Part shown: piece by piece, positions 6,224-27,002 of the stretch
How positions within the stretch are numbered: position 1 is the stretch's first letter
Layout of the letters: each line of letters starts with the position of its first letter
Source of the DNA: Clostridia bacterium
Lineage (GTDB): Bacteria; Bacillota; Clostridia; Oscillospirales; CAG-272
DNA: 63,484 nt
NCBI GenBank assembly: GCA_017959065.1
Contig: JAGDBK010000003.1
Coordinates: 1 to 63,484, forward strand
Direction of reading: 5' to 3'
Notes under the pieces: generated by a model
The model's input: only the letters and a program-made list of their open reading frames with translations
Told to the model about the DNA's origin: nothing
Database searches by the model: none
Position numbers and translations under genes: made by a program

Positions 6224-6299
6224 GCTGGTGTAGCTCAGTTGGTAGAGCAGCTGATTTGTAATCAGCAGGTCGGGGGTTCAAGTCCGTCCACCAGCTCCA
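6224..6299 (+). tRNA. tRNA-Thr (anticodon TGT), CCA encoded
   Basis: Cloverleaf by hand: acceptor GCTGGTG/CACCAGC, D stem GCTC/GAGC, anticodon stem GCTGA/TCAGC with loop TTTGTAA, T loop TTCAAGT. One G-G mismatch in the T stem (GGGGG/CCGTC). Confidence 0.85.
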
Positions 6300-6405: not shown

Positions 6406-7341
6406 TTGATCAGACAGCAGGCTTTTTCGGACAAAGAGAAACGGTTTCTTAAAGGCGGGCTTCACTGTCATACAACGCGCTCGGACGGCAGCCGGTCGCC
6501 GGAAGATACCCTTAAAGCCGCAAAGGAAGAGGGTTTTGATTTCATGGCGCTGACAGACCATCAAGTTTATAATCTTAAGAATTTTGCCCCTGAAACAGGA
6601 GTTATCGTCATTCCGGGAATGGAACACAGCAATAACCTGTTTAAAGATCACGGATTCAGATGTTTTCATACGGTTTGTCTCGGTCCTACCAAAGAGGACG
6701 GGAACGGGTTTGATCAAGATGAAAGGTTTGATTGCGGCGAGGCGCCGGACGCCGAGGCATATCAGCCTTTTCTGGACGAGGTCCATCGCAGGAACAACCT
6801 GACCATTCTCTGCCATCCCCAGTGGAGCAACACCAGTGCGAGGTACTTTGAAAAGCAGAAAGGCAATTTCGCCATGGAGATCTGGAACAGCGGCTCCGTA
6901 TTGTACTGTGATTCAGATAACGACGCGGCTTACTGGGACGAGATCCTTGGCCAGGGTATCAAGTGGTACGGTGTAGCGACAGATGACGCTCATGCGCATT
7001 GGGAGTTCGGTAACGGTTGGGTAATGGTCAAGGCGGACAAAAACATATCGTCCATCCTTAAAGCCCTAGAAAACGGCGAGTTTTATTCCACATGCGGCCC
7101 GGAGATCCATGATTTTTACATTGAGGACGGTAAGGCCAAGGTGGACTGTTCTCCCGTCAACAGGGTTCTTATGCACTCCGACAAGCACACAAACGCCATG
7201 ATAAGGGACGATAACTCAAATCTTACGCATGCGGAGTTTGATCTTGAAGACTCGTGGGAAGGTCCTTACGATTATGTGAGGATCAGCGTAGTCGACAAGG
7301 ACGGAAAGAAAGCCTGGACAAATCCGATATTTCTATCCTGA
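6406..7341 (+). CDS. PHP-domain metal-dependent phosphoesterase
   Basis: PHP signature GGLHCHTTRSDGS...FMALTDH. I prefer the TTG at 6406, which sits 8 nt after AGGAGG (6392-6397). The ORF-track ATG at 6319 lies inside the tRNA terminator hairpin. Confidence 0.7.
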   Translation: MIRQQAFSDKEKRFLKGGLHCHTTRSDGSRSPEDTLKAAKEEGFDFMALTDHQVYNLKNFAPETGVIVIPGMEHSNNLFKDHGFRCFHTVCLGPTKEDGNGFDQDERFDCGEAPDAEAYQPFLDEVHRRNNLTILCHPQWSNTSARYFEKQKGNFAMEIWNSGSVLYCDSDNDAAYWDEILGQGIKWYGVATDDAHAHWEFGNGWVMVKADKNISSILKALENGEFYSTCGPEIHDFYIEDGKAKVDCSPVNRVLMHSDKHTNAMIRDDNSNLTHAEFDLEDSWEGPYDYVRISVVDKDGKKAWTNPIFLS

Positions 7342-7426: not shown

Positions 7427-8350
7427 TCAGTTCAGTCTGAGATATTCGCAGGCAGCCATCGCGGCAGACGTTCCGTCCGCTACGGCGGTAGTGAGCTGGC
7501 GGATCATTTTCGAACGGCAGTCTCCTGCGGCAAAGAACCCTGCTCTGCTTGTTTTTGAATTCTCGCCGGCATCTATGTACCCCTGAGCGTCCAAATCGAC
7601 CAGAGAGGAAAATATGGCGTTCTGAGGCTCCTGACCGACGGACACGAAGACCGCGCTGACCGGAATACTCTTGATTTCGTCAGAGACCGTGTTTTTCACG
7701 CTGATCCCGGAAACTGATTCTCCGCCGGTTATCTCATCAACAACCGAATCAAGGATGAATTCCACATTGGGCTTTGAAATCAGGGTCTCAACAAGTTTTG
7801 ATTCGCCTCTGAATTCCTGCCTTCTGTGAATGAGACTGACCTTGCTGCAGATCCCGCTGAGCAGTTCGCACGCGCTGAGAGCCGAACTGCCTCCGCCTAC
7901 CACGGCGACTTCTTTTCCGCTGTAGAAGGCACCGTCGCAGATTGCGCAGTATGACACACCTTTCCCCGCAAATTCCTCTTCGCCTTTTGCTCCTAGTTTT
8001 CTGTGCCTGCAACCCGTCGCTATGATGACGGCTCTGGCCTCGAATGAGGAGTACTCGGTCGTGACTTTTTTAACTGTGCCGAGATCTTCGACTCCGGTCA
8101 CAGTGTCAAATTCGGTCTCGACTCCGAGATCGGTCGCCTGAGTATATATAAGATCGGACAGCTCCATGCCAGATATCTCTTTGAATCCGGGATAGTTTTC
8201 TACCTTCGGTGAAACGGATATCTGTCCGCCTATGGCCGTCCCCTCGATAACAAGTGCTCTCTTCCCTGCTCTGGAAAGATATATTCCCGCTGTATATCCG
8301 GCAACTCCTCCGCCGATAATTATAACGTCATACATCGGCCCGCCGGTCAT
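7427..8350 (-). CDS. trxB: Thioredoxin-disulfide reductase
   Basis: FAD motif IIIGGGVAGYTAG, redox CAIC, NADPH motifs VVGGGSSA and HRRQEFR. The ATG overlaps the nrdD stop (ATGA at 8350-8347). Confidence 0.85.
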   Translation of the reverse strand: MTGGPMYDVIIIGGGVAGYTAGIYLSRAGKRALVIEGTAIGGQISVSPKVENYPGFKEISGMELSDLIYTQATDLGVETEFDTVTGVEDLGTVKKVTTEYSSFEARAVIIATGCRHRKLGAKGEEEFAGKGVSYCAICDGAFYSGKEVAVVGGGSSALSACELLSGICSKVSLIHRRQEFRGESKLVETLISKPNVEFILDSVVDEITGGESVSGISVKNTVSDEIKSIPVSAVFVSVGQEPQNAIFSSLVDLDAQGYIDAGENSKTSRAGFFAAGDCRSKMIRQLTTAVADGTSAAMAACEYLRLN

Positions 8351-10689
8351 CTTTCCTCGGCAAACTTCTTGATGTTGGAGGCGTTGATGTATTTTTCAAC
8401 GTTGCCGCTGTCGACGACTACGAGAGTCGGTGCCTGATTAACGCCGTACTTTTCGGTCATTTCTCTGTCTTCTTCAGCGTCGATGACCGTATATTTTACG
8501 CCGGCCTTGTCAAGCATGGCCTTTGCCATTTTGCAGTTGGGGCATGTTTTTGTCGTGAACAGGAGAACTTCCTTCTGTGTCTGACCGGCAGGATTGTTCT
8601 CATGCACAATATTGTCTATCATGACGTTGTAAAGTTTTCTTGCCTTGAACTCCGCAGCCTTGCCTTCGTTCCAGTTCTGGACGGGGCGGTAATACCCGGT
8701 TATTCGGCTGTAGACCTCGGTGACTTCGCCGCATTCCGGACACTTGTATACCTCTCCAACGATGTATCCGTGGTTCTTGCAGATGGAATATGTCGGCGAC
8801 AGAGTGTAATAAGGAAGCTTGTAGTTCTCCGCAATCTTTCTTACAAGATTGGCGGCTGATTTCCATGTCGGGAGCTTTTCGCCTATGAACGCATGGAACA
8901 CGGTGCCGGACGTGTAGAGCGTCTGAAGCTCGTCCTGAATGTCGAGAGCGGTGAAAACGTCGTCGGTGAATCCGACAGGCAGATGAGAACTGTTGGTGTA
9001 GTACGGAGCTGCGTCGCAGTTAGCGGACGCGGTAATGATATCAGGATAGAGTTCGACGTCCTTCTTTGCAAGACGGTAGCTTGTGGATTCGGCGGGAGTG
9101 GCTTCGAGGTTGAACAGGTCTCCGTATTTCTCCTGATAGTCGGAGAGCCGTTCCCTCATGTGGTCGAGAACTTCCTTTGTGAACTGGATCGATTCCGGAT
9201 TCGTAAGATCCTTCCCTATCCAGCATGCATTCAGGCAGGCTTCGTTCATTCCAACAAGACCGATCGTTGAGAAGTGATTCTTGAAGGTACCCAGATATCT
9301 GCGGGTATAGGGATACAGACCCTCGTCAAGAAGCTTTGTGAGTATGGTGCGTTTGGTGTTCAGCGACCTTGCGGCGATGTCCATGAGTTTGTCGAGTCTG
9401 CGGTAGAATTCTTCAGGCGTCTTCGACAGATAGGCAATACGCGGCATATTGATCGTTACGACTCCGACGGAACCGGTCGATTCTCCGCTTCCGAAGAATC
9501 CTCCGGATTTCTTTCTGAGTTCTCTCAGATCCAGACGGAGACGGCAGCACATGCTTCGGATGTCGCTGGGTTCCATGTCGCTGTTTATGTAATTCGAGAA
9601 ATAAGGTGTCCCGTATTTTGCCGTCATTTCGAACAGAAGACGGTTATTCTCGGTCTCGGACCAGTCAAAATCCTTAGTGATGGAATAGGTGGGAATGGGA
9701 TACTGGAATCCGCGTCCGTTGGCGTCGCCCTCGAGCATGACCTCGATGAACGCCTTGTTCACCATATCCATTTCCTTCTTGCAGTCCTTGTACTTGAAAT
9801 CCATCTCCTTGCCGCCGACGATCGCGTTGAGTTCGGCAAGGTCGTTCGGGACGACCCAGTCAAGAGTTATGTTGGAGAACGGAGCCTGAGTTCCCCATCT
9901 GCTCGGAGTATTGACTCCGAAGATGAATGATTCGATGCATTTCTTGACATCGCGGTAAGACAGATTGTCCGCTTTAATGAACGGTGCAAGATAGGTGTCG
10001 AATGACGAGAAAGCCTGTGCTCCTGCCCACTCGTTCTGCATGATGCCGAGGAAATTGACCATCTGGTTGCAAAGCGTGGCAAGATGGCTTGCCGGGGATG
10101 ACGTTATCTTGCCGGGGATGCCGCCGAGGCCTTCCTGTATGAGCTGCTTGAGAGACCAGCCCGCACAGTATCCGGTAAGCATCGAAAGGTCGTGAATGTG
10201 AAGATCGGCTCTTCTGTGAGCGTTCGCGATCTCCTCGTCATATATCTCGGAGAGCCAGTAGTTCGCGGTGATGGCACCGGAATTGCTCAGGATAAGGCCG
10301 CCGACGGAATAGGTGACCGTGGAGTTTTCCTTTACTCTCCAGTCGATGCCGTTGACATACTGGTCGACGACATCCTTATAGTCAAGAATCGTGGATTTCA
10401 TGTTGCGGATACGCTCGCGCTGTTTCCTGTACAGGATGTAGCACTTTGCGACATCTGCGTAGTCTGCACTGATAAGGACTTCCTCGACGCTGTCCTGAAT
10501 ATCTTCAACTGTCACTTTGCCGTCCTTTATCTTTTTCTCAAAGTTCGATGTGACCTTGAGAGCAAGCAGATCAATGATATCAGGGTTATACTGTCTGTTT
10601 TGAGCTTCGAAAGCCTTTGTTATGGCCGCACTGATCTTTGAAATGTCGAAATCAACTACTTTTCCGTCTCTTTTAACTACCTGATACAT
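8347..10689 (-). CDS. nrdD: Anaerobic ribonucleoside-triphosphate reductase (class III) with a fused C-terminal glutaredoxin/NrdH-like CPNC domain
   Basis: ATP-cone N-terminus, MCCRLRLD loop, C-terminal Zn ribbon (CKNH...CPECGE), glycyl radical motif SRITGYY (8706-8689). The last 73 aa (8568-8350) are VLLFTTKTCPNCKMAKAML...APTLVV, with CPNC at 8544-8533. Confidence 0.9.
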   Translation of the reverse strand: MYQVVKRDGKVVDFDISKISAAITKAFEAQNRQYNPDIIDLLALKVTSNFEKKIKDGKVTVEDIQDSVEEVLISADYADVAKCYILYRKQRERIRNMKSTILDYKDVVDQYVNGIDWRVKENSTVTYSVGGLILSNSGAITANYWLSEIYDEEIANAHRRADLHIHDLSMLTGYCAGWSLKQLIQEGLGGIPGKITSSPASHLATLCNQMVNFLGIMQNEWAGAQAFSSFDTYLAPFIKADNLSYRDVKKCIESFIFGVNTPSRWGTQAPFSNITLDWVVPNDLAELNAIVGGKEMDFKYKDCKKEMDMVNKAFIEVMLEGDANGRGFQYPIPTYSITKDFDWSETENNRLLFEMTAKYGTPYFSNYINSDMEPSDIRSMCCRLRLDLRELRKKSGGFFGSGESTGSVGVVTINMPRIAYLSKTPEEFYRRLDKLMDIAARSLNTKRTILTKLLDEGLYPYTRRYLGTFKNHFSTIGLVGMNEACLNACWIGKDLTNPESIQFTKEVLDHMRERLSDYQEKYGDLFNLEATPAESTSYRLAKKDVELYPDIITASANCDAAPYYTNSSHLPVGFTDDVFTALDIQDELQTLYTSGTVFHAFIGEKLPTWKSAANLVRKIAENYKLPYYTLSPTYSICKNHGYIVGEVYKCPECGEVTEVYSRITGYYRPVQNWNEGKAAEFKARKLYNVMIDNIVHENNPAGQTQKEVLLFTTKTCPNCKMAKAMLDKAGVKYTVIDAEEDREMTEKYGVNQAPTLVVVDSGNVEKYINASNIKKFAEER

Positions 10690-15359: not shown

Positions 15360-15953
15360 TTAGCTGAGCGGAATAACCCAGATGTTTCTGAACGAAACGG
15401 CGTTTCCGTGGTCCTGAAGCATAAGGGGACCTTTTGCTACTCTCTTATCGTTGGTGATGCCGCCCGGAGTAACGCTGTAAAGCTCAACGTTGTTGTGGAC
15501 TACGATGCCGTTCTGAATGACGGTCATCCTGCCGTTTTCGGCAATCTCGCCGTGTGAGTTGAATTTGGGAGCGCGGAGGATGATATCATATGTCTGCCAT
15601 TCAAGAGCCGGAAGACAAGCGTTGAACAAAGGAGCGTGCATCTGATAGATGCCCGAGCAGTCGTTATTGAGCGGCGGGTCTATGCCGTATGAATCAAGTA
15701 CCTGAACTTCATAGCATCCGTGTACGTATACGCCGCTGTTGCCTTTTCCCTGGCCGGTCGCCTCGGGCATGTCAGGGATCCTGAACTCGACGTGAAGCTG
15801 AGCGTCACCGAAAGTGTAATCCGAAATGATGTCACCGTTGCCTACGGTGCATATGCCGTCCTCGATCTTCCAGTTCGGAACGGTGCCTGAACCGCGGGTC
15901 TTCCAGTTTTCAAGGGATGTGCCGTCAAACAGCATGATTTTTTCAGCTTTCAT
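15360..15953 (-). CDS. DUF1080 (3-keto-disaccharide hydrolase-like) domain protein
   Basis: 197 aa: LFDGTSLENWK...WKIEDG...LMLQDHGNAVSFRNIWV, the typical DUF1080 signature. No signal peptide. Confidence 0.75.
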   Translation of the reverse strand: MKAEKIMLFDGTSLENWKTRGSGTVPNWKIEDGICTVGNGDIISDYTFGDAQLHVEFRIPDMPEATGQGKGNSGVYVHGCYEVQVLDSYGIDPPLNNDCSGIYQMHAPLFNACLPALEWQTYDIILRAPKFNSHGEIAENGRMTVIQNGIVVHNNVELYSVTPGGITNDKRVAKGPLMLQDHGNAVSFRNIWVIPLS

Positions 15954-16022: not shown

Positions 16023-16982
16023 TTACTGATTTTTGTAAGCCTCGACCATCATGTGAGTCAGTCTCTTCGCTTCATCGATTCCGCATCCCGGAAGAATGTT
16101 GCCGGAGAGGAACTGCTTCAGCGGAGAGGGCTTGGCGTCATCGTGGCTGAGCTCGACGACAACGGTATCTTTGTCGGGGGTGTTTATCTTCTTTGTAATG
16201 GTGTCTCCGCCGTCCCAGAGAAGTGTACCCTTTTCGCCGCCTATCTCGAAAAGGCTCGGGAAACCGTAAGAAACGAATCCAGTCTCGTTGACTGCTATGC
16301 ATCCGTTATCATATGACATTACGGTGACAGCGTTGTCTTCTACTCTGTCGGTGTTGAGAGCAAGCGCATCGGGATTTATGCATGCGTTGGTGAAGCAGGA
16401 TTTGTAGCCTGTAGGCTGTCCGCAGAACCAGTCGATCTGATACATGCCGTGCGCACCGAGATCGATCATGGCGCCGCCGCCGCATTCCTTGGCGTCATAG
16501 AAATGTTTCGGAAGCCAGTTGTTGCTGCTTCCGGAATGGCAGTTCCTGAAACGTATGTAATTGATAGTGCCGATCTCGCCTGCGTCGACTATCTTCTTTA
16601 GAGTTATCGGACCAGGACCGTATTTCCAGACAAGTGAAATGACGAATTTAACATTATTCCTTTTAACAGCTTCCTCTACCCTGAGACAGTCCTCATCGCT
16701 GAGAGCTAGAACTTTCTCTGTAAAGATATGCTTTCCGGCATCCGCGATCCTGACCATCAGGTCTGCGTGCGTATCAGTCGATGAACAAACGATGACGCCT
16801 TCTGCGTCGGAGGCAAGAAGATCTTCAAAAGTATCGAACGCCGGGATCTCGTGCTTTTCGGCGAATTTGGCCTTTCTTTCAGGATTCTGATCCCAGACTC
16901 CGACCACTTCCGCATTTTCTTTCGCGGTTTTTGCGTAACCGCCGGCATGTACATGCCAAACTCCGCAAACAGCAACCTTCAT
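16023..16982 (-). CDS. Gfo/Idh/MocA family oxidoreductase
   Basis: I prefer the ATG at 16982 (MKVAVCGVWHVHAGGY...), with a GAGG SD 9 nt upstream. The ORF-track 5' extension runs into the promoter. Confidence 0.8.
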   Translation of the reverse strand: MKVAVCGVWHVHAGGYAKTAKENAEVVGVWDQNPERKAKFAEKHEIPAFDTFEDLLASDAEGVIVCSSTDTHADLMVRIADAGKHIFTEKVLALSDEDCLRVEEAVKRNNVKFVISLVWKYGPGPITLKKIVDAGEIGTINYIRFRNCHSGSSNNWLPKHFYDAKECGGGAMIDLGAHGMYQIDWFCGQPTGYKSCFTNACINPDALALNTDRVEDNAVTVMSYDNGCIAVNETGFVSYGFPSLFEIGGEKGTLLWDGGDTITKKINTPDKDTVVVELSHDDAKPSPLKQFLSGNILPGCGIDEAKRLTHMMVEAYKNQ

Positions 16983-17055
16983 AGCTATAACCTCGTCTTT
17001 CTGAAATAATAAAGTACTGAAATAAGTACGATCCAGTTGAGGAAACGTCGTTAGA

Positions 17056-17084
17056 ATTATAGCAAAAATGATAATTGTTGTCAA
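17056..17084 (-). promoter_or_regulatory. Consensus sigma-A promoter (TTGACA-17-TGcTATAAT) for the oxidoreductase/DUF1080 pair
   Basis: Minus strand: TTGACA (17084-17079), 17-nt spacer ending in TGC, TATAAT (17061-17056). Confidence 0.75.
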
Positions 17085-17197: not shown

Positions 17198-18019
17198 ATG
17201 GAACCTGATAAGAAAGATATCCCGATTAACGGTAATCCGGCTGAAGACGATGAGGTCATTGAGTCTAACATCTCCAAAAGGCTGAGCGCGCTCGAGGGCG
17301 ATGTTCCAGACGGTAGCGTCGTTATTGAGGATTCCCCGAAGACATTCAAAGAGAAGATCGCCAATTTCTTTTTTCATTACAAATGGCCTGTCATTGTAAT
17401 CGGGGTTTTTGTTATTATTATGGCGGTGTGCATCGTCCAGCTCGCGACGAGGAAGAAGGCGGACATCCTTGTAATGTACGCCGGTCCCGCCGTACTCACT
17501 CCGGAACAGATAAACGCCGTCGAGGCATCGTTCGATACAATCGCAGCCGAACCGGGGAAATCACACAGCACTTCCCTCCTGGACCTGACTGTTTATACCG
17601 AGCAGCAGATCGAGGATCTGAAGAAAAAATCTGCGGAAGATGGGGAGCCGGTAGCGGTAAATTCGATCGCAATATACAATTCGAGGCAGAGATTCAGCGC
17701 TGAGATAACTGTAGGAGACACCTGTATAGTACTTGTCAGTCCGGAGATGTACAAATCAGTACACGATGCGGGAGGCTTCATGAAGCTTTCAGAAATAACG
17801 GACAGCCTTCCCGAGGGTGTTCAGGCTTATGATGACAGCGCCGTGATCCTGTCTTCGACGAATTTCGGAAAGAAGTTCGCAGGACTCAAGGATCTTCCTG
17901 AAGACACGCTTCTCTGTATGAGGAGGCTCAAGACTATGAGCGTCTTCACCGGGGTTCAGAAAGCTCAGGACAGCCACGCTTTTCATCTTGAGATATTTAA
18001 GAAGATACTGAACTACTGA
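17198..18019 (+). CDS. Hypothetical single-pass membrane protein
   Basis: ATG at 17198, 7 nt after AGGTGA. One transmembrane (TM) segment, WPVIVIGVFVIIMAVCIVQL. No recognisable domain. Confidence 0.6.
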   Translation: MEPDKKDIPINGNPAEDDEVIESNISKRLSALEGDVPDGSVVIEDSPKTFKEKIANFFFHYKWPVIVIGVFVIIMAVCIVQLATRKKADILVMYAGPAVLTPEQINAVEASFDTIAAEPGKSHSTSLLDLTVYTEQQIEDLKKKSAEDGEPVAVNSIAIYNSRQRFSAEITVGDTCIVLVSPEMYKSVHDAGGFMKLSEITDSLPEGVQAYDDSAVILSSTNFGKKFAGLKDLPEDTLLCMRRLKTMSVFTGVQKAQDSHAFHLEIFKKILNY

Positions 18020-18045
18020 CTGCTTTTAAACGGATAAAAACAAGT

Positions 18046-18087
18046 AGACCGGCTTTGTCTGGAAATTTCCAGAAAGCCGGTCTTTTA
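18046..18087. terminator. Bidirectional terminator between convergent genes
   Basis: Long hairpin AGACCGGCTTTGTCTGGAAA / TTTCCAGAAAGCCGGTCT with U-runs on both strands. Confidence 0.8.
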
Positions 18088-18100
18088 TCATTGTATCCGT

Positions 18101-20632
18101 TCAGGCAGTCGGTATATTCATGTGATCCTCAAGATGAAGAGTCACGGCTGCGTCCTGCCTGATCTTGTACTTGAGTATCTTGCCTGCCGCGTTCATCGGG
18201 AACGAGTCGGTGAAAATGATATATCTCGGGACCTTATGTTTGGCCATATTGGCCCTGACATAATCCTTGATCTCGTCTTCGGTGGCTGTGCAGCCCTCTC
18301 TGAGTACTATGCATGCGCAGACCTCCTCGCCGTATTCCCTGTCCGGAACTCCGACGACCTGGACATCCAGGATCTTCGGATTGGTATAGAGGAATTCCTC
18401 TATCTCCTTGGGATAGATGTTCTCTCCGCCGCGGATGATCATGTCCTTTATCCGTCCGGTGATCTTGTAGTAGCCGTTCTCGTCCCTGCGGGCAAGGTCT
18501 CCCGAATGGAGCCATCCGTCGCTGTCTATGACGGCGGCAGTGGCTTCAGGCATCTTGTAGTAGCCCTTCATAATGTTATACCCGCGAGCGCAGAATTCAC
18601 CGTCGGTGTTGTCGGGTAGGTCTTCACCCGTCTGCGGGTCAACGATCTTGCATTCAACCGCGAAGATGGCAGCGCCGACTGTATTTACCCTGGTCTCTAT
18701 GGAGTCCGTCGTCTTCGACATCGTTGTCGCGGGAGATGCCTCGGTCTGACCATATGTGATACAGATCTCGGTCATGTTCATTTTTTCTATGACATCGCGC
18801 ATGTATTTTATCAGGCAGGGACTTCCGGCCATAATGCCGGTCCTCATGTGACTGAAGTCGGTATGCTCGAAATCTGGATGCTTCATCATGGCGATGAACA
18901 TGGTAGGTACACCATGGAAACAGGTTATCTTTTCCAAATTAATGCATTTAAGTGCCTTGGACGGTGAGAACGCAGGGATCGGAGACATGGTGACCCCGTG
19001 CGTCATAGAAGCGGTCATGGCAAGCACCATGCCGAAACAGTGGAACATGGGCACCTGTATCATCATTCTGTCGGCGGTGGAAAGATCCATGCAGTCTCCG
19101 ATGGATTTTCCGTTGTTGACAACACTGTAGTGCGTCAGCATTACGCCCTTCGGAAAACCAGTAGTGCCGGATGTGTACTGCATGTTGCAGACATCGTCCT
19201 TTGATATTGCCGCGGCCCTTCTGTAAACTTCCATTACCGGAATGCTGTTGCCGCGCGCAACAGCTTCCTCCCATGAATAGCATCCGGGCTGGACAGACTC
19301 GCAGGTAATTACGTTTCTGAGGAACGGAAGTCTTTTTGAGTACAGCGGTTTATATTTGTTATGGGTAGCCAGTTCCGGACAGAGTTCCTTGATTATCTCA
19401 ACGTAGTCGGAGTCTTTGAACCTGTCTGTCATTACAAGAGTATGTGTATCAGACTGTCTGAGAAGGTACTCTATCTCGTGAATCTTGTAAGCAGTGTTGA
19501 CAGTAACGAGAACGGCGCCGATCTTGACCGTGGCCCAGAAAGTGATGTACCACTGAGGGACATTCGTGGCCCATATCGCTACGTGGTCTCCCTGCTTGAC
19601 TCCAAGCGCTATCAGGGAGCGGGCGAATGCGTCAACATCGTCCCTGAATTCCGAATACGTTCTTGTATAGTCCAGTTCAGTATACCTGAAGGCGTACTGA
19701 TCCGGAAACTCCTCCACCATCTTGTCAAGCACCTGCGGGAAAGTCAGGTCGATGAGATGCTCTTTCGGCCATACGTATTTACCGGTCTTCCGGTTGTTGT
19801 CGATGAGTTTTCCGCTTCCCCTGTCTGTGTCCACGTATCTTGACATGAAATTGGAGAAATGCGGGAATACAATTCCGGCCGCCTCTATCTCTGGAGCGTA
19901 GTTTTTGACCCACTCGAGCGATACATATCCGTCATAGTTGATGGATCTCAGTGCCTGCATGGCATCGTCTATCGGGAGATCGCCCTCGCCCATCAGCTTG
20001 TATTTGACTTTTCCGTCGATCATCAGAGAGTCTTTTATATGAGTGTATTTAATGAACATCCCTAGGTTCGTGATCGTCTGTTCTGGACTCTCGCCTTTGA
20101 ATCTGTACGGATGGTGAATATCCCAAAGAGCGCCGACGTTTTCGCTCTTGAGTTCAAACAGAAGGCCTGACAGGCGGGCTGTGTCGGCATAGACACCGTT
20201 AGTCTCGATAAGAAGGGTCACGTTCTTTTCCTCGGCATATGGAATAAGATCCTTCATTACTGAGAGAATGAGAGAATCATCCACTTCTCCGTCTTCGTCC
20301 GCATGTTCATCCGCGAGGATACGGATGAAATTCGAACCCAGATTATGTGCAAGATCTATGTACTCTTTGATCTCGGCAATGTTCTTTTCCCTGCGGTCGG
20401 CGAACTTGAGGCAGCATCCGGATGAAAGACATGGGATCTCCAGATGTCGCTTGTCAAGTTCGGCTTTGGTATTCTGTACGTTCTCCGCCTTAAACGGTTT
20501 TGCTCTGACGGAGAAAATGTCTCCGCCCAGACCTCTCATCTCGATCCCGGAAAAACCGAAATCCTTGGCCATCGAATAAATGTCCGACCAGTCAAAATCC
20601 GGGCAGCCAAGTGTGGAAAAAGCAAGTTTCAT
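18101..20632 (-). CDS. Fusion protein: N-terminal xylose-isomerase-like TIM barrel (sugar phosphate isomerase/epimerase family) plus C-terminal AMP-dependent acyl-CoA synthetase/ligase
   Basis: ATG at 20632 (MKLAFSTLGCPDF...), preceded by AAAAGGAGATACC. TIM barrel spans roughly aa 1-245. The ligase part has YTSGTTGFPKGV, GQTE, GWLHSGD and KILK motifs. It is one uninterrupted frame. The ORF-track extension to 20800 crosses the T-box terminator. Confidence 0.8.
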   Translation of the reverse strand: MKLAFSTLGCPDFDWSDIYSMAKDFGFSGIEMRGLGGDIFSVRAKPFKAENVQNTKAELDKRHLEIPCLSSGCCLKFADRREKNIAEIKEYIDLAHNLGSNFIRILADEHADEDGEVDDSLILSVMKDLIPYAEEKNVTLLIETNGVYADTARLSGLLFELKSENVGALWDIHHPYRFKGESPEQTITNLGMFIKYTHIKDSLMIDGKVKYKLMGEGDLPIDDAMQALRSINYDGYVSLEWVKNYAPEIEAAGIVFPHFSNFMSRYVDTDRGSGKLIDNNRKTGKYVWPKEHLIDLTFPQVLDKMVEEFPDQYAFRYTELDYTRTYSEFRDDVDAFARSLIALGVKQGDHVAIWATNVPQWYITFWATVKIGAVLVTVNTAYKIHEIEYLLRQSDTHTLVMTDRFKDSDYVEIIKELCPELATHNKYKPLYSKRLPFLRNVITCESVQPGCYSWEEAVARGNSIPVMEVYRRAAAISKDDVCNMQYTSGTTGFPKGVMLTHYSVVNNGKSIGDCMDLSTADRMMIQVPMFHCFGMVLAMTASMTHGVTMSPIPAFSPSKALKCINLEKITCFHGVPTMFIAMMKHPDFEHTDFSHMRTGIMAGSPCLIKYMRDVIEKMNMTEICITYGQTEASPATTMSKTTDSIETRVNTVGAAIFAVECKIVDPQTGEDLPDNTDGEFCARGYNIMKGYYKMPEATAAVIDSDGWLHSGDLARRDENGYYKITGRIKDMIIRGGENIYPKEIEEFLYTNPKILDVQVVGVPDREYGEEVCACIVLREGCTATEDEIKDYVRANMAKHKVPRYIIFTDSFPMNAAGKILKYKIRQDAAVTLHLEDHMNIPTA

Positions 20633-20640
20633 GGTATCTC

Positions 20641-20926
20641 CTTTTCGTAACGCGGAGACAAAACAAAAAGCTTTCGTCTCCTGAATATGACAAGAGACGA
20701 AAGCATTAATCTTCCGCGGTACCACTCTTATTGATGCCGTAAGGCACCCGCTCGTCGACACTAACATGTCTATCTCTGTAACGGGAGAAACCGTCAGCAC
20801 CTATTTTTAATTCAGCACTGCCGCTCCGCGGGGAGTAGGACAGATGACAATGCCGCCGTATCGCACCGAACTACGGCTCTCTGAAGACATTCTGTCATGT
20901 CCGCTCCGCATCACTGCGTTTAAAAC
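20641..20926 (-). promoter_or_regulatory. T-box riboswitch leader
   Basis: K-turn CGC-AGU-GA-UGCGG...CCGCG-GA-GCG. AG bulge AGAGA (20882-20878). Distal helix GCCGUA/UACGGC. F-box-like GGUUUCUCCCGUUAC (20792-20778). T-box core AAUAAGAGUGGUACCGCGG (20732-20714). Mutually exclusive antiterminator and terminator. Confidence 0.85.
20659..20704 (-). terminator. T-box intrinsic terminator (attenuator)
   Basis: GCUUUCGUCUC, 13-nt loop, GAGACGAAAGC, then UUUUUGUUUU. Confidence 0.85.
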
Positions 20927-20932
20927 ATCGTA

Positions 20933-20961
20933 ATTTTAGCATACGTATATGGTTTTGTCAA
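20933..20961 (-). promoter_or_regulatory. Sigma-A promoter of the T-box leader (TTGACA-17-TGcTAAAAT)
   Basis: TTGACA (20961-20956), 17-nt spacer, TAAAAT (20938-20933). Confidence 0.7.
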
Positions 20962-21032: not shown

Positions 21033-21503
21033 TCAGTTTCCAAGAATGGACAGGAGCGGTTTTACCAAGGAGTATTTAGTCTTTGAAAGATAATCGACAT
21101 CGTCAATACTTCCGTTAGATTCGCATTCTTGAATATAACTGCTAATTATTGAATATGCATCTTTTCTTTCCAACAGTTCTGCCAGCGGGGGAAACCTGTC
21201 CTCTACGGTTTCCAGTCCTAGACTTAAACTATCGAAAGCATATAAGTCAGCTAAATACGGATAATTCAAGACCGTAATAAACAATGCGTTTGTAGTCATC
21301 TTTTTTGCTGTATCAAGGCTGACATAACACATTTCTCTTTTTGCGGAAGTATCTAACTCTGCCCATCCTTTTGAATCTGGAGTAACAGGATACTCATAAG
21401 GTGTATCAATAGTGTATGAATTATCAATTATAGTTTCATTGCCGAAGCTGCACCCAAAACTTCCCCCGATGAGAATACATAAAAGAATTATTAAAGGAAT
21501 CAA
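21033..21503 (-). CDS. Hypothetical small secreted protein/lipoprotein
   Basis: TTG start overlapping the upstream stop (TTGA). Signal peptide MIPLIILLCILIGGSFGC. Confidence 0.55.
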   Translation of the reverse strand: MIPLIILLCILIGGSFGCSFGNETIIDNSYTIDTPYEYPVTPDSKGWAELDTSAKREMCYVSLDTAKKMTTNALFITVLNYPYLADLYAFDSLSLGLETVEDRFPPLAELLERKDAYSIISSYIQECESNGSIDDVDYLSKTKYSLVKPLLSILGN

Positions 21504-22483
21504 GACTTTACCTGCTTTTTCTTTTTGCGGTCAAATATATTGATAACTCTGTTTTGTACCGAACTGTATTTCTGACAAAACTGTGCAGCAAGTCTGTCGC
21601 TCTGGCATTTACAGTGTTTCATAATATACAGCAAGGATTTTCCGTATAAGATACGCTCATTATCTTTCGCACAGTACAATGCAGCTTCATCGCAGGAAAG
21701 TTCCATTTCCGAATTACATCTCTCCGCTGCTAAATATACAAGCGGATTGAACCAGTGCAATGCGCGCGCAAATACACATATCATCTTTAACCAGACATCT
21801 TTTCGTTTATAATGAATTATCTCATGAGTTAAAACGCATTCCAATACATCAGTTGATAGATCCATCTGCGGTAAAACAATACTGGGATGGAGAAAGCCGT
21901 ACATCACAGGAACCGGAATACCGCTGCTGATCTGAAAAAGCGGAGCACGGGTTACAGATTGTTTTTCGCAGATCAGTTTATAGTGATTAGAATACTCTTT
22001 CTGAGGGGATAACAGTGTATTCTTAATCTTCCTGACATAATAACCATAGCGAATGAGAAAAAACGATATGTATATTATCATCCCTGCAAACCAGATATAT
22101 GAAAGGACAGCAATAAATGCCGCAGGTGAAAATACAGCTCCGGTTCGGTTGCTTTCTGTTTTCGGTATGATCCTGTCTGATTCAATTACATTATTCTGTT
22201 CGGAATATGGCATATCATTAACAAGCCCCGTTTCGAAACTTCCGGGTACTGAAAGCTCCGCTGTCCGGACAATGCTTTCAGAGGTCATTCTAACTGTAAA
22301 TAACGGACGGATGATCATTGTTCCTAGCGGAAGACAGAGGCAAATAATTATCACAGTCCATACTTTAAAACGACAATTCGCAGTAAATCTGGTACCGAAC
22401 AGTCTAGAAAGCAGAAAGGTCAAGATAATCACAGACGATATCGTCAGTGAGGTCACTGCAAAAGTCAAAAACAATCCAGTCAT
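21500..22483 (-). CDS. M56-family (BlaR1/MecR1-type) membrane metallopeptidase lacking a C-terminal sensor domain
   Basis: HEIIH zinc motif and multiple TM segments. Only 327 aa, ending shortly after the peptidase domain. Confidence 0.75.
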   Translation of the reverse strand: MTGLFLTFAVTSLTISSVIILTFLLSRLFGTRFTANCRFKVWTVIIICLCLPLGTMIIRPLFTVRMTSESIVRTAELSVPGSFETGLVNDMPYSEQNNVIESDRIIPKTESNRTGAVFSPAAFIAVLSYIWFAGMIIYISFFLIRYGYYVRKIKNTLLSPQKEYSNHYKLICEKQSVTRAPLFQISSGIPVPVMYGFLHPSIVLPQMDLSTDVLECVLTHEIIHYKRKDVWLKMICVFARALHWFNPLVYLAAERCNSEMELSCDEAALYCAKDNERILYGKSLLYIMKHCKCQSDRLAAQFCQKYSSVQNRVINIFDRKKKKQVKS

Positions 22484-22497
22484 GTTAAAAGCTCCTG

Positions 22498-22884
22498 TTA
22501 ATCCTTTTTTAATTCGATACGCTTTTTTTCCAGGAGTTCAGCTATTTCACTGATCTCGTTTTCACCGATGTCATTGTTATCAAGAAGTGACGCCACCATG
22601 CTTTTTACAGACCCGCCCAGAATACTTCTGAGCATAATGGACTGATACTCATTTTTACTAATTGATGCTGCATAGAGATACGTGGAACTGCTGCGATTGA
22701 TTGAAATATACCCTTTTGTGCTGAGCCGTTTGAGCAGAACTGTTGCAGTCGGATTTTTCCATAAATGTTTATTTGAAAGCGCAGAAACGATCTCTGAAAC
22801 TGACATCTCTTTTCCGCTTTCCCATAACACACGCATAATGTCCAGTTCTGCTTCTGGAATCTGCCCTTGTTTTTGTAAATACAT
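22498..22884 (-). CDS. BlaI/MecI/CopY family transcriptional repressor
   Basis: MYLQKQGQIPEAELDIMRVLW... winged-helix N-terminus. I prefer the ATG at 22884 (purine-rich SD AGAGAGTG); the ORF-track ATG at 22911 abuts the operator. Confidence 0.75.
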   Translation of the reverse strand: MYLQKQGQIPEAELDIMRVLWESGKEMSVSEIVSALSNKHLWKNPTATVLLKRLSTKGYISINRSSSTYLYAASISKNEYQSIMLRSILGGSVKSMVASLLDNNDIGENEISEIAELLEKKRIELKKD

Positions 22885-22912
22885 TTTAATCACTCTCTTA
22901 TATTGAATCATC

Positions 22913-23462: not shown

Positions 23463-25865
23463 TTACCTGACCACAAAATTAATAATCTTACCGGGAACGA
23501 AGATCTTTTTGACTATCTGTTTGCCTTCCGTGAAATCGGCGATCTTTTCATCCTTCAATGCAGCTTCGATGGCTGATGCTTCGTCAGTTCCGGCAGGCAG
23601 CTTGATCTTTGATTTCAGTTTTCCGTTGATCTGAAGGACATATTCAACGGTTTCGGAGATCGTAAGGCTGTCGTCATAAGACGGCCAGGCGGAAAGCGAA
23701 AGCAGATTGCTGTGCCCCAGCTGTTCCCACATCTCTTCACAGATATGAGGAGCAAACGGACAAAGCAGAGAGATATATGTCTCGAGCTCGTTTTTGGTAA
23801 GTCTTCCTACCTCAAATATCTTATTGAGCAGCGTCATCAGCTGGGCAATGGCTGTATTGAATTTCATGCCGTCAATGTCGGAAGTGACTTTCTTGACGGT
23901 TCTGTGGAAATCCTGTTCAAGTTCTGGTGTAATGCCCTCCCCGCTGACTATGTCGGTCAGAGAGAAGACCCTCTCAACGAATCTTCTGCATCCGCGGATA
24001 CTCTGGGGAGACCAAGGCGCCGATTTCTCGAAATCACCGACGAACATTTCATACAGCCTGAGCGTATCCGCTCCGAACTCGGCTACTATATCGTCAGGGT
24101 TGATAACATTACCCTTCGATTTGGACATTTTCTCACCGTTTTCACCGAGGATCATGCCATGGGCGGTTCGTTTCAGATAAGGTTCGGGACAGGAGAGCAC
24201 GCCGATGTCGTAAAGGAATTTAGCCCAGAATCTTGAGTACAGCAGATGGAGAGTCACATGCTCCATGCCTCCGTTGTACCAGTCGACAGGCATCCAGTAG
24301 TCCAGCGCTTCTTTGGAAGCAAGCGCATCGGCATTGTGAGGGTCACAGTAACTAAGGAAATACCAGGATGAACCGGCCCAGTTAGGCATGGTGTCGGTCT
24401 CTCTTTTTGCGGGGCCTCCGCATTTCGGACAGACGGTATTGACCCAGTCCTCGCATTTTGAAAGCGGGGATTCGCCGTTGTCTGTAGGCTCGTAAGCTTC
24501 AATGTTGGGAAGCTCGAGCGGAAGCTCTTCCTCGGGGATCGGTACCCAGCCGCACTTCTCGCAGTATACCATCGGAACGGGTTCGCCCCAGTAGCGCTGT
24601 CTGGAAAAGATCCAGTCCCTGAGCTTGTAGTTTATCTTTCTGTTGCCGAGACCGTTCTCTTCAAGCCAGTCTATCATAGCTTTCTTGGCTTCTTCTACGC
24701 TTTTGCCGTTAAGGAATCCGGAGTTTATGAGAGTCCCGGTAGCTACATCGGTGAAAGCTTCTTCGGAGATATCGCCTCCGGCGACGACCTCTATGATAGG
24801 AAGGCCGAATTTTTTGGCAAACTCGTAGTCCCTCGTGTCATGAGCGGGAACTGCCATTATCGCGCCGGTTCCGTAAGTCGAAAGGACATAATCGGAAATG
24901 TATATCGGTATGGTCTTTCCGTTCGCTGGATTGATCGCCGAAACACCCTCAAGCTTTACTCCGGTCTTGTCCTTGGCCAGTTCGGTCCTCTCAAAATCGG
25001 ACTTTTTGGCTGCATTCTTCTGGTATTCGCGTACTTCGTCGATATTGGAAATGCAGTCGGCCCATTTTTCGATAAGTTTGTGCTCAGGCGACATTACAAG
25101 ATATGTGGCTCCGAAAAGCGTGTCAGCCCTGGTCGTGAAAACCTGGATACCGTCACCGGCGGTGGAACTGAATACGATCTCAGCACCTTCGGATCTGCCG
25201 ATCCAGTTGATCTCCTGCGTCTTGACTCTTTCAATAAAATCAAGATCCGCCAGATCGTCAATGAGCCTCTGAGCGTAATCGGTTATCTTGAGCATCCACT
25301 GGCTCTTTACTTTTCTAACGACTTCGCTTCCGCATCTTTCGCAGACGCCGTTGACGACTTCCTCGTTAGCGAGAACTACCTTGCACGATGTGCAGAAGTT
25401 GACGGTCATTTCCTTTTTGTATGCCAGACCGTGCTTGTACAGCTGGAGGAATATCCACTGCGTCCATTTGTAATACGAGGGGTCTGTCGTGTTGATCTCC
25501 CTGGACCAGTCAAAAGAAAAACCGATGGATTTCAGCTGTTCCTTGAACCTTTTGACATTGTTCTTAGTGACTGTCGCCGGGTGGATCTTATGCTTGATCG
25601 CATAGTTCTCCGTGGGGAGTCCGAAAGCGTCCCAACCCATAGGGAAAAGGACATTGTATCCCTGCATTCTTTTCTTTCTGGAGACTATGTCAAGAGCTGT
25701 ATAGGGTCTTGGGTGACCTATATGCAGTCCCTGTCCCGAAGGATAGGGGAATTCTACCAGAGTATAGTATTTCGGCTTTGTGTAGTCGTTTTTTGCTTCA
25801 AAAGCGTGTTCCGCGTCCCAGCGGTCCTGCCACTTTTTTTCGAGTTGTCTGTGATCGTACTTCAT
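23463..25865 (-). CDS. leuS: Leucine--tRNA ligase
   Basis: [16 protein letters not shown]..., HIGH-type motif (HIGH), KMSKS. The ATG at 25865 is 19 nt after the rsfS stop. The ORF-track extension overlaps rsfS. Confidence 0.9.
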
Positions 25866-25884
25866 CTTGAGTAAACCATCCAAT

Positions 25885-26319
25885 TCAATTATTGTCGTTT
25901 CCGCTTTCCTCTTCGGATACTTCGGACAGTGGTTCGCTTGATTTGGTCTTGAAAATCTCCGTTCCCTGGTTCCAGAGCTTTTCAAGATTGTAGAAGCTCC
26001 TTAAGTCATGGTTGAAAATGTGAACTATAACTGATCCGAAGTCAACGACGATCCAGGTACCTTCGTTGTAGCCCTCTATGCGAAGAGGCGGCTTGCCTTC
26101 CTCGCCGAGCTTGAACTCGAGTTCGCTGGCAAGAGCCTTGATCTGCGTGTTGGACGTGCCTTCGCACACGACGAAATAGTCTGCGAGGATAGTCTGTTCC
26201 TCAACATGGAGTAGACTGATGCTGCGAGCCTTTTTCTCATCAAGGACAGCTATTATCCTGTCCGCAAGCTCAGCCGCCTGTCTTCTTTCCTCTTCGTCTG
26301 CCTGATTTTCTTTTTTCAT
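25885..26319 (-). CDS. rsfS: Ribosome silencing factor
   Basis: [19 protein letters not shown]...[15 protein letters not shown] prefer the ATG at 26319 (SD AAGGA). Confidence 0.8.
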
Positions 26320-26372: not shown

Positions 26373-27002
26373 TCAGAGAACACAATTGCACAGATAGTTT
26401 CTTGCACGGAATGTATCGGGAGCTATTATCTTCTTTTCACGTATAAGATCCTCTATCGTTAGGTCGAAAGAATAAAGAAGAGTCTCGTCAAGGACCTTGA
26501 CTTTATCTTCCGGAGGAGACTTTTCAAGGGATCCGTAAAAATGCTCTCTGAGGATCACGCAGTCCCTGAACTTTCTTTTAGGCTCTATGTAATCGGCAAG
26601 ATACAGGACCTTTTCTGAGAGAGTCATATTCTCTCTTCCTGTTGTGTGGTACCCGATGGCGGAGAGATATTCTTCTCCGATGCGGTCTCCGAACACTTCC
26701 CTTGCCAGCGCCTCACCGGTTTTTGCATGAAAGCATTTTGGGGATTTTTTCAGTTCTTCAGCGCAAAGTATACCATATTTGATGCACAGTTTCAACTGTT
26801 CGTCTTCCCCGAGCTCCTTGGTCACATCATGAAGTATCGCTGCGGCTCTGAGCGGAATTTCCTTGTCAGGACAGTATATTCCGCATAGCCTGGCGGTCTC
26901 TTTCTCAACAGATAGAGTATGTGTGATCCTTTTGCCGCTCAGTCTCGGCGTCACAAAATCCCTTATTTCATTCAGAAACCCGTTTTCTGTCTTGTTATCC
27001 AT
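26373..27002 (-). CDS. yqeK: HD-domain bis(5'-nucleosyl)-tetraphosphatase, YqeK family
   Basis: RITHTLSV...AAILHDVTKE HD motif and a conserved operon position. Confidence 0.75.
   Translation of the reverse strand: MDNKTENGFLNEIRDFVTPRLSGKRITHTLSVEKETARLCGIYCPDKEIPLRAAAILHDVTKELGEDEQLKLCIKYGILCAEELKKSPKCFHAKTGEALAREVFGDRIGEEYLSAIGYHTTGRENMTLSEKVLYLADYIEPKRKFRDCVILREHFYGSLEKSPPEDKVKVLDETLLYSFDLTIEDLIREKKIIAPDTFRARNYLCNCVL

Follow-up and report, generated by a model that had tools for sequence, protein, structure and literature searches.

A predicted leucine-specific T-box attenuator upstream of a TIM-barrel::acyl-CoA ligase fusion gene in a Clostridia bacterium

To which amino acid does a T-box riboswitch respond, and what for, if the gene that follows it encodes neither an aminoacyl-tRNA synthetase nor a recognised biosynthetic enzyme or transporter? 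This question is raised by a locus in a stretch of 63,484 nt from a Clostridia bacterium (assembly GCA_017959065.1, contig JAGDBK010000003.1, positions 1-63,484 of the forward strand). The whole stretch is called the window in the following, and all coordinates of the T-box unit are given in its numbering and refer to its minus strand. An earlier note on this DNA had described a complete T-box upstream of a gene for a sugar-isomerase-like TIM barrel fused to an acyl-adenylate ligase and had supposed an amino acid-related enzyme responding to uncharged tRNA. It is shown here that the T-box carries a leucine specifier and that the fusion gene is a new member of the leucine T-box regulon. Taken as a whole, the region is very probably best explained as a leucine-specific T-box attenuator gating a one-gene operon, for which a role of the encoded enzyme as branched-acid ligase is proposed.

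The covariance model RF00230 (gathering score 93 bits), which the earlier note had suggested as a check, matches the minus strand at 20923..20690 with 109.5 bits (E 2.7e-23) over the full model (1-219 of 219 positions), and the Rfam scan of the whole 63-kb window returned this single T-box. The model begins approximately 10 nt downstream of a Sigma-70-type promoter, i.e., at 20923, and all elements that had been read from the sequence before were recovered (Table 1), bearing out the description as a complete canonical transcriptional T-box. In an alignment of 38 Stem I sequences the AGAGA bulge and the distal GGUG(C)GA motif are invariant or nearly so. Stem I is furthermore supported by covariation, as both partners have changed in each of the 13 pairs tested, 92.7% of the cells are paired, a value matched by none of 500 shuffles, and registers shifted by 1-3 columns pair in only 36-59% of the cells.

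The switch itself is formed by two helices that are mutually exclusive, since the 3' strand of the antiterminator, UUCGUCUCU, falls within the 5' arm of the leader terminator, as had been claimed earlier. The antiterminator folds with -3.3 kcal/mol versus about -24 kcal/mol for the terminator, and the fold of the latter has a z-score of -4.8, with none of 200 shuffles folding equally well. This is the standard T-box layout, in which termination is the default and a weak alternative helix needs the acceptor end of a tRNA. Both within RF00230 and within the Leu class the RNA is unremarkable, the only oddities being a pyrimidine after the specifier and a degenerate S-turn.

The specifier loop reads UACUCC on its 3' side, with neither a GAA S-turn nor a purine after the codon, which makes the window alone ambiguous with regard to the specifier. 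The register was obtained from homologous leaders. Orthologue loci were taken from one genome per species, at least 599 stretches encoding relatives were confirmed, and the best 80 of these form the orthologue set, to which locus-level results refer unless stated otherwise. The T-box core GAGUGGUACC(G/A)(C/U)G was found in 40 of the 80 loci, on the same strand as the fusion gene and 83-260 nt upstream of its start codon, giving 41 aligned leaders together with the window and 43 together with those of the cultured isolates Ligaoa zhengdingensis and Yeguia hominis. In all 41 aligned leaders, a single base separates the specifier triplet from the 3' strand of the basal helix of Stem I. The triplet reads CUG in three leaders (L005, L006, L008) and CUC in the other 38, to which the window belongs. 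The leader of L. zhengdingensis, at 9678-9931 of locus L081, has CUG as specifier and that of Y. hominis, at 2680-2926 of L086, has CUC, so that all 43 leaders carry a Leu codon, 39 times CUC and four times the synonymous CUG. The bases before the triplet vary freely (GAA, AUA, GGA, UAA and others), and the base after it is a purine in 31 of the 40 relatives and a pyrimidine in nine of the 40 and also in Y. hominis. The UGGU bulge is present in 40 of 40 core matches among the orthologue loci. The terminator hairpin and U-run are present in 41 of 41 leaders, and therefore all of them act on transcription. CUC is the commonest Leu specifier, accounting for 74% of Leu T-box specifiers (TBDB preprint). 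The link to an amino acid that had been supposed from the architecture is considerably strengthened by these data, as 43 of 43 leaders keep a Leu specifier, with T-box-bearing proteins diverged down to 64% identity. A functional Leu T-box attenuator of the fusion gene is thus highly probable.

Of the 40 core-positive loci, 12 were analysed with Rfam, nine of which scored at or above the gathering score; of the other three, L009 and L071 gave whole-model matches below it with 70.7-84.5 bits (E <= 3e-13), and L051 a whole-model match with 46.3 bits (E 5e-7). In addition to these 12, L018 had no match above the gathering score but matched the whole model with 80.6 bits. The remaining core-positive loci were called T-box by the core motif.

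The regulated unit consists of one gene, as the earlier note had assumed, because a strong terminator directly follows the stop codon and faces a convergent plus-strand open reading frame (ORF) that ends at 18019. The hairpin of this terminator, 18083-18046, folds with -34.9 kcal/mol (z -8.9). A longer ORF starting at GTG-20800 was considered as the gene and ruled out by 843-aa homologues that cover 100% of the query.

The domain matches confirm that the gene encodes a fusion of a TIM barrel with an ANL ligase and not a synthetase, a recognised biosynthetic enzyme or a transporter. In the C-terminal part, AMP-binding (PF00501; 308.7 bits, E 6e-92) and AMP-binding_C (PF13193; 65.3 bits, E 1e-17) both score above their cut-offs. 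The motifs YTSGTTGFPKG, YGQTE, GRIKD and the C-terminal GK are present and invariant in the alignment of the relatives, so that the adenylation and thioester motifs of the ligase domain are intact. The best NCBIfam model for the ligase is PRK12583 (NF009233) with 699.4 bits for residues 291-833, the next family reaching 434 bits; as the curated cut-off is 832 bits, the ligase is not a member of PRK12583 by threshold, though this is its nearest family. Its relatives in the PDB are generic ANL enzymes only, such as fatty-acyl, feruloyl, malonyl and 4-coumarate CoA ligases. Among unfused ligases, the closest share 47-53% identity with the ligase domain of the fusion.

The N-terminal domain exceeds the PF01261 cut-off of 31.1 bits by far (Table 1), and its AlphaFold2 model (pLDDT 89.7) shows a (beta/alpha)8 fold. 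Putative metal ligands, E143, D171, H198 and E240, were assigned by alignment to D-tagatose 3-epimerase and are invariant or 98.75% conserved in 80 sequences. Foldseek searches with the TIM model returned an unannotated protein, the isomerase Art22, AsbF (3dx5), ketose 3-epimerases, IolI and UlaE with a probability of 1.0 and TM-scores of 0.65-0.76 at not more than 21% identity, which is a generic family likeness only, and a PDB sequence search found no close solved structure (best E 1e-5). The best NCBIfam matches are the fructoselysine 3-epimerase FrlC (48 bits, E 1e-12) and the 5-keto-L-gluconate epimerase IolO (41.6 bits), for which, as for the ketose 3-epimerases, equivalog cut-offs are approximately 300 bits; the domain remains below every NCBIfam equivalog cut-off. 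The designation of the barrel as sugar-isomerase-like therefore holds for the fold, and no link to sugars was found. As it reaches neither the curated threshold of PRK12583 nor that of any TIM-barrel equivalog, the protein belongs, as judged from sequence models, to an unnamed family, and databases label it only as AMP-binding protein or fatty-acyl-CoA synthase. An AlphaFold2 model of the full-length protein was poor (pLDDT 58, pTM 0.37) and was not used.

The best 80 relatives are all fusions that align over 827-843 of the 843 residues with 67-76% identity. Most of them are labelled Oscillospiraceae, Ruminococcaceae, Clostridia, Clostridiales or Eubacteriales; Christensenellaceae, Lachnospiraceae, Dehalobacter and others also occur. 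Clustering at 50% identity reduces the full-length family to few clusters. Naturally split genes were considered and rejected, as apparent stand-alone TIM proteins come from frameshifted assemblies in which neighbouring genes are split too; in L083 and L084, frameshifts fragment the fusion together with several neighbours (FGGY kinase, MatE). The fusion is thus the native form, and public databases hold many spurious stand-alone TIM or AMP-binding fragments originating from such assemblies.

Table 1. Features of the T-box unit in window numbering, listed in the direction of transcription.
Feature	Position	Strand	Basis and details
Sigma-70-type promoter	20961..20933	-	TTGACA, 17-nt spacer, TG-extended TAAAAT; 11/12 matches
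T-box leader (Stem I, Stem II/IIA-B with F-box, Stem III, antiterminator)	20690..20923	-	RF00230
Stem I (basal K-turn, specifier loop, AG bulge, distal loop)	20821..20920	-	sequence, RF00230 match and 38-sequence alignment
K-turn (GA motif), 5' half GC-AGUGA-UGCGG	20917-20906	-	sequence and RF00230 match
K-turn (GA motif), 3' half CCGCG-GA-GC	20831-20823	-	sequence and RF00230 match
AG bulge AGAGA	20882-20878	-	sequence and RF00230 match
Distal helix GCCGUA/UACGGC, 6 bp, loop GUUCGGUGCGA	loop 20871-20861	-	sequence and RF00230 match
Specifier CUC (Leu)	20835-20833	-	followed by C (20832), then CCGC = 3' strand of basal helix
F-box region CGGUUUCUCCCGUUA		-	sequence and RF00230 match
T-box core AAUAAGAGUGGUACCGCGG	20732-20714	-	sequence and RF00230 match
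UGGU bulge within T-box core	20724-20721	-	placed to pair with tRNA 3' ACCA end (discriminator A73)
Antiterminator helix, AGAG/CUCU and GCGGA/UUCGU around UGGUACC bulge	20728-20693	-	RF00230 structure line and fold, -3.3 kcal/mol
Leader intrinsic terminator, 14-bp stem	20704-20670	-	fold; followed by U-run UUUUUGUUUU (20669-20660)
Ribosome-binding site AAAGGAGA	20644-20637	-	read from sequence; 4 nt (20636-20633) to ATG
843-aa fusion coding sequence, stop included	18101..20632	-	ORF; ATG at 20632, stop codon 18103-18101
Xylose-isomerase-like TIM barrel (AP_endonuc_2, PF01261)	19904..20569 (aa 22-243)	-	109.9 bits, E 2e-31
ANL acyl-CoA ligase region	18179..19723	-	AMP-binding aa 304-692, AMP-binding_C aa 743-818
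Bidirectional intrinsic terminator closing the unit	18035..18083	both	hairpin 18083-18046 between A and U runs

Binding of tRNA and the response to its charging would be expected here by analogy with the established T-box mechanism. Transcription is predicted to start approximately 7 nt past the -10 box. By default, the leader would form its strong terminator with the adjoining U-run, and RNA polymerase would stop before the gene. If leucine is scarce, uncharged tRNA-Leu with the anticodon GAG, or a wobble partner, would dock on Stem I, the anticodon pairing with the CUC specifier and the elbow stacking on the platform formed by AG bulge and distal loop. The free 3' ACCA end of the tRNA could then pair with the UGGU of the T-box bulge and stabilise the antiterminator, which takes the 5' arm of the terminator and would allow read-through into the gene; a charged tRNA could not lock the antiterminator, and the terminator would form. 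UGGU pairs with an A73-CCA end, as found in bacterial tRNA-Leu. A tRNA scan of the window found no tRNA-Leu gene, the sole tRNA being tRNA-Thr(UGU) at 6224-6299 on the plus strand.

What the leucine signal is used for has to be judged from the T-box as the only functional clue, since no shared neighbourhood, solved structure or paper assigns a function to the enzyme. It is rather likely that the enzyme serves the supply or the sparing of leucine. A more specific proposal can be argued from three facts, i.e., the invariant Leu specifier, the ligase being nearest to PRK12583, and the atu-like context of the unfused relative P0251. The latter is 47% identical, has PRK12583 as best model with 797.6 bits (below 832) and is encoded among genes for AtuA, a carboxyltransferase, an acyl-CoA dehydrogenase, a short-chain dehydrogenase/reductase and a thiolase. 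Acyl-CoAs with a 3-methyl branch are processed by the atu pathway, which leads into the leucine/isovalerate (Liu) pathway (PMC4847356). Together, these facts tentatively suggest that the ligase activates a 3-methyl-branched acid, with isovalerate as prime candidate, to the CoA thioester. An isovaleryl-CoA-type product might be converted to leucine by reductive carboxylation to 2-oxoisocaproate and subsequent transamination, or the thioester might replace leucine-derived isovaleryl-CoA; the TIM domain may isomerise, epimerise or dehydrate the same substrate, or its precursor, in a coupled reaction. The conversion of isovalerate to leucine by reductive carboxylation has been described physiologically in rumen anaerobes. 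It is conceivable, although it should be regarded as speculative, that a so far unrecognised pathway for the salvage of leucine is widespread among Clostridia of the gut and rumen, and that the fusion, under leucine control, is its committing enzyme. Environmental isovalerate, or a keto- or hydroxy-derivative that is first converted by the TIM domain, would in this case be activated to the CoA thioester, which would be reductively carboxylated to 2-oxoisocaproate and transaminated to leucine.

Several observations weigh against a leucine-specific T-box controlling a branched-acid ligase. At the level of the RNA, the S-turn of the window reads AGCG...CUA instead of the canonical AGUA...GAA, and the base 3' of the specifier is C where the T-box consensus has a purine. 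At the level of the gene family, 40 of the 80 orthologues lack a T-box, so that the conservation of the T-box upstream of homologues that the earlier note had put forward for testing holds for one half of the loci, and its presence is patchy on the protein tree, a pattern that would agree with a T-box that was associated with the gene early and lost several times, or that was gained several times. Furthermore, 67-76% identity across families is high for an optional salvage enzyme. ORF calling and all-against-all BLAST of the 80 loci revealed no conserved gene neighbourhood, and hence nothing independently ties the enzyme to leucine. With regard to the chemistry, the idea of a branched acid is based on the one atu-like context of P0251, the gene contexts of the other unfused relatives being uninformative, and a simple isovalerate scheme leaves the invariant active site of the TIM domain without a role.

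These points have to be set against the alternatives. The leader might be read in another frame of UACUCC, as UAC (Tyr), ACU (Thr) or UCC (Ser), and the missing GAA S-turn and post-codon purine indeed leave the register not obvious from the window alone; however, the triplet anchored by the structure is CUC or CUG in all relatives, and the preceding bases vary freely, which makes a different frame extremely improbable. The enzyme could also be unrelated to leucine, with the T-box captured as a sensor of general starvation, tRNA-Leu being abundant, or persisting as an inconsequential drifting element. The T-box-less half of the orthologues and the variable neighbourhood would agree with this, but a sensor that drifts or is generic should show varying specifiers or decay, whereas 43 of 43 leaders keep a Leu codon despite the exchange of CUC and CUG and despite protein identities as low as 64%, terminator and antiterminator are retained complete, and in all experimentally verified cases the specifier fits the function of the gene (PMC2494555). 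A lack of any relation to leucine is thus improbable.

Closer to the branched-acid proposal is the sparing of leucine instead of its synthesis, in which isovaleryl-CoA made from external isovalerate would prime iso-branched lipids and avoid the breakdown of leucine when it is scarce. It draws the same support from a PRK12583-like ligase under a Leu-specific T-box, and a monocistronic gene with no partner genes would suit a single activation step feeding existing pathways. The present data do not separate sparing from synthesis and the TIM domain is likewise left unexplained, but the T-box targets of known function are synthetases, biosynthetic genes and transporters, and sparing by itself is considered unlikely, albeit the least unlikely of these alternatives. 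Slightly less probable still is that the TIM domain acts first and isomerises, epimerises or dehydrates a keto- or hydroxy-acid or a sugar-derived conjugate, the product of which is then activated by the ligase; substrates may be 2-hydroxy- or 2-oxo-isocaproate or an Amadori-type leucine adduct. The obligate fusion and the invariant TIM site, by which the two chemistries are probably coupled, speak in favour of this order of events, as do the best NCBIfam TIM matches to fructoselysine 3-epimerase (E 1e-12) and 5-keto-L-gluconate epimerase, the presence of AsbF among the top Foldseek matches and a domain order like AsbF then AsbC. However, all TIM matches are remote (not more than 21% identity, TM-scores of about 0.7) and far below family cut-offs, and conserved partner genes, such as those for kinases, deglycases or transporters, are missing from the surroundings. 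Most parsimonious is the interpretation as a leucine-supply enzyme, in salvage or in biosynthesis, which would make the fusion a new member of a known target class. The earlier note had placed the gene outside the known classes of T-box targets; it is correct that no recognised class fits, but the contention that it is not a biosynthetic gene is not established.

The T-box-less orthologues were searched for other forms of control. Rfam scans of 10 of the 40 core-negative loci found no T-box, and none appeared when L021 and L025 were rechecked at E <= 1e-3; in the T-box-less loci scanned, no other Rfam riboswitch precedes the fusion (gathering threshold, with rechecks at E <= 1e-3), by which a decayed T-box or a different riboswitch was rejected for these loci. 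Control by CodY was likewise rejected, as sites with not more than three mismatches occur in two of the 40 upstream regions versus 0.8 expected, which is no enrichment. Further RNA elements were encountered elsewhere in the orthologue loci. L013 contains an additional T-box at 9922-10155 on the minus strand (118 bits) that is not upstream of the fusion and serves a different amino acid, as judged from its UGGC bulge. In L019, a further T-box was seen as core motif only near 14264 on the plus strand, 5.7 kb downstream of the fusion gene. L015 carries a NiCo riboswitch at 6799-6881 on the plus strand, immediately downstream of the fusion and ahead of a cation-diffusion-facilitator gene. A ZMP/ZTP riboswitch in L021 (1877-1988, minus strand) and a thiamine pyrophosphate (TPP) riboswitch in L005 (10694-10801, minus strand) are both not located upstream of the fusion.

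Among the genes next to the fusion in the 80 loci, the largest cluster is a MATE efflux protein found in eight loci, and the other clusters, encoding an ABC ATPase, a radical SAM protein, AroQ, a P-type ATPase, a MocA oxidoreductase and MurA, represent local synteny only. A divergent fusion (P0243, L091) and an unfused ligase (P0247, L087) each precede an orthologous PF00198 gene. The encoded E2-like acyltransferases of approximately 330 aa (L091 2690-3700; L087 7847-8815) are 52% identical and possess a DHRxxD motif and no lipoyl domain. This acyltransferase family is common in termite-gut and human-gut metagenomes (292 matches), usually not beside a ligase. It was considered as a partner and rejected, since a ligase lies upstream in just one of 56 metagenomic loci with enough upstream sequence and the gene is absent from the window and from the other main-family loci, so that the adjacency is not general.

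Within the window, the fusion gene is flanked by two unrelated groups of genes, i.e., a BlaI/BlaR1-like pair upstream, and the convergent ORF and sugar-oxidation genes downstream; the remainder encodes housekeeping functions of an anaerobic Firmicute. The upstream group comprises a BlaI-like repressor (22498-22911) and a BlaR1 M56 peptidase-like sensor (21500-22483), both on the minus strand, followed by a 156-aa ORF with no Pfam match (21033-21503, minus strand) that ends just upstream of the T-box promoter. The gene for leucyl-tRNA synthetase (LeuRS; 23463-25985) shares the strand of the T-box unit, lies 2.8 kb upstream of it, directly follows an HD-domain gene (26373-27002) and has no T-box leader; the Leu T-box is thus found here on the fusion gene and not on leuS. 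Downstream, a GFO/IDH/MocA oxidoreductase gene (16023-17084, minus strand) with a perfect TTGACA-17-TATAAT promoter (17084-17056) adjoins a gene for a 3-keto-disaccharide-hydrolase-domain protein (15360-15953, minus strand), and the pair resembles a 3-keto-sugar module. MocA-type genes neighbour the fusion in four other loci (L066, L069, L075, L080), which is probably due to synteny. Further away, the window encodes NrdD (ATP-cone and NRDD; 8347-10689, minus strand) with a fused C-terminal glutaredoxin/thioredoxin-like domain (residues 705-772), and directly downstream of it a pyridine-nucleotide disulphide oxidoreductase (7427-8350).

Few features of a sequence can link a gene of unknown function to a particular amino acid, and the specifier of a T-box is one of them. 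In this instance, the T-box provides a functional handle on a very widespread, abundant and uncharacterised enzyme of the gut microbiome and probably ties its family to the supply of leucine. Branched short-chain fatty acids matter for cross-feeding and for ruminant nutrition, and if the role in isovalerate and leucine metabolism holds true, the fusion would be the entry enzyme for their use by many gut and rumen anaerobes, and the T-box regulon would extend to acid-activating enzymes. If it in fact commits isovalerate to leucine salvage, a gene would be found for a pathway known only from labelling physiology, and a reaction new to PF01261 barrels would be revealed in one that works together with an ANL ligase. 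If not, the locus would still be a clean annotated example of a canonical Leu T-box.

In comparison with known systems, the leader shares its structural modules, the CUC specifier, the UGGU/A73 pairing and the mode of transcription antitermination by overlapping antiterminator and terminator with the Leu T-boxes of RF00230 that precede leuS and ilv-leu/leuA in Bacillus and Clostridia, such as CD2521 leuS and CD0989 leuA in C. difficile (PMC11477304). It differs in the pyrimidine after the specifier, in the degenerate S-turn and in its target, which is not a synthetase gene and has no recognised role in biosynthesis or transport. T-boxes ahead of unknown or apparently unrelated genes account for 8% of T-boxes, and neither AMP-binding nor acyl-CoA entries are listed in the supplement of the same survey (Wels et al., 2008; PMC2494555). 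Among the full texts searched, no paper was found that connects T-box control to an AMP-binding or CoA-ligase gene or reports on the fusion. PRK12583 is the best hidden Markov model over the whole ligase domain, yet the protein of the window stays below its cut-off and has approximately 290 extra N-terminal residues, i.e., the TIM barrel and linker. Human ACSF2 and B. subtilis YngI are presumably enzymes of PRK12583 type, and no PRK12583-type ligase is known to be under T-box control.

The role proposed for the fusion, the ATP-dependent activation of exogenous short branched acids, is the same as that of MbcS, the short branched-chain acyl-CoA synthetase of Staphylococcus aureus, and of the rumen isovalerate route, although this is an analogy only; MbcS presumably belongs to another ANL branch and has no TIM barrel, and no gene is tied here to the rumen pathway. 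With other PF01261 barrels, such as ketose 3-epimerases, FrlC, IolO/IolI, UlaE, Art22 and AsbF, the TIM domain shares the fold and the E-D-H-E pattern of ligands. It differs from them by the fusion to a ligase, by not more than 21% identity to solved structures and by the lack of conserved sugar-pathway neighbours, and it resembles AsbF no better than sugar epimerases. In petrobactin biosynthesis, the TIM-barrel dehydratase AsbF makes 3,4-dihydroxybenzoate, which is then activated by the adenylating enzyme AsbC. AsbF and AsbC are separate proteins encoded in a siderophore cluster, act on an aromatic substrate and have no link to a T-box or to leucine, but they constitute a precedent for a PF01261 barrel making the acid that an ANL enzyme activates, which is the logic proposed here for the fusion.

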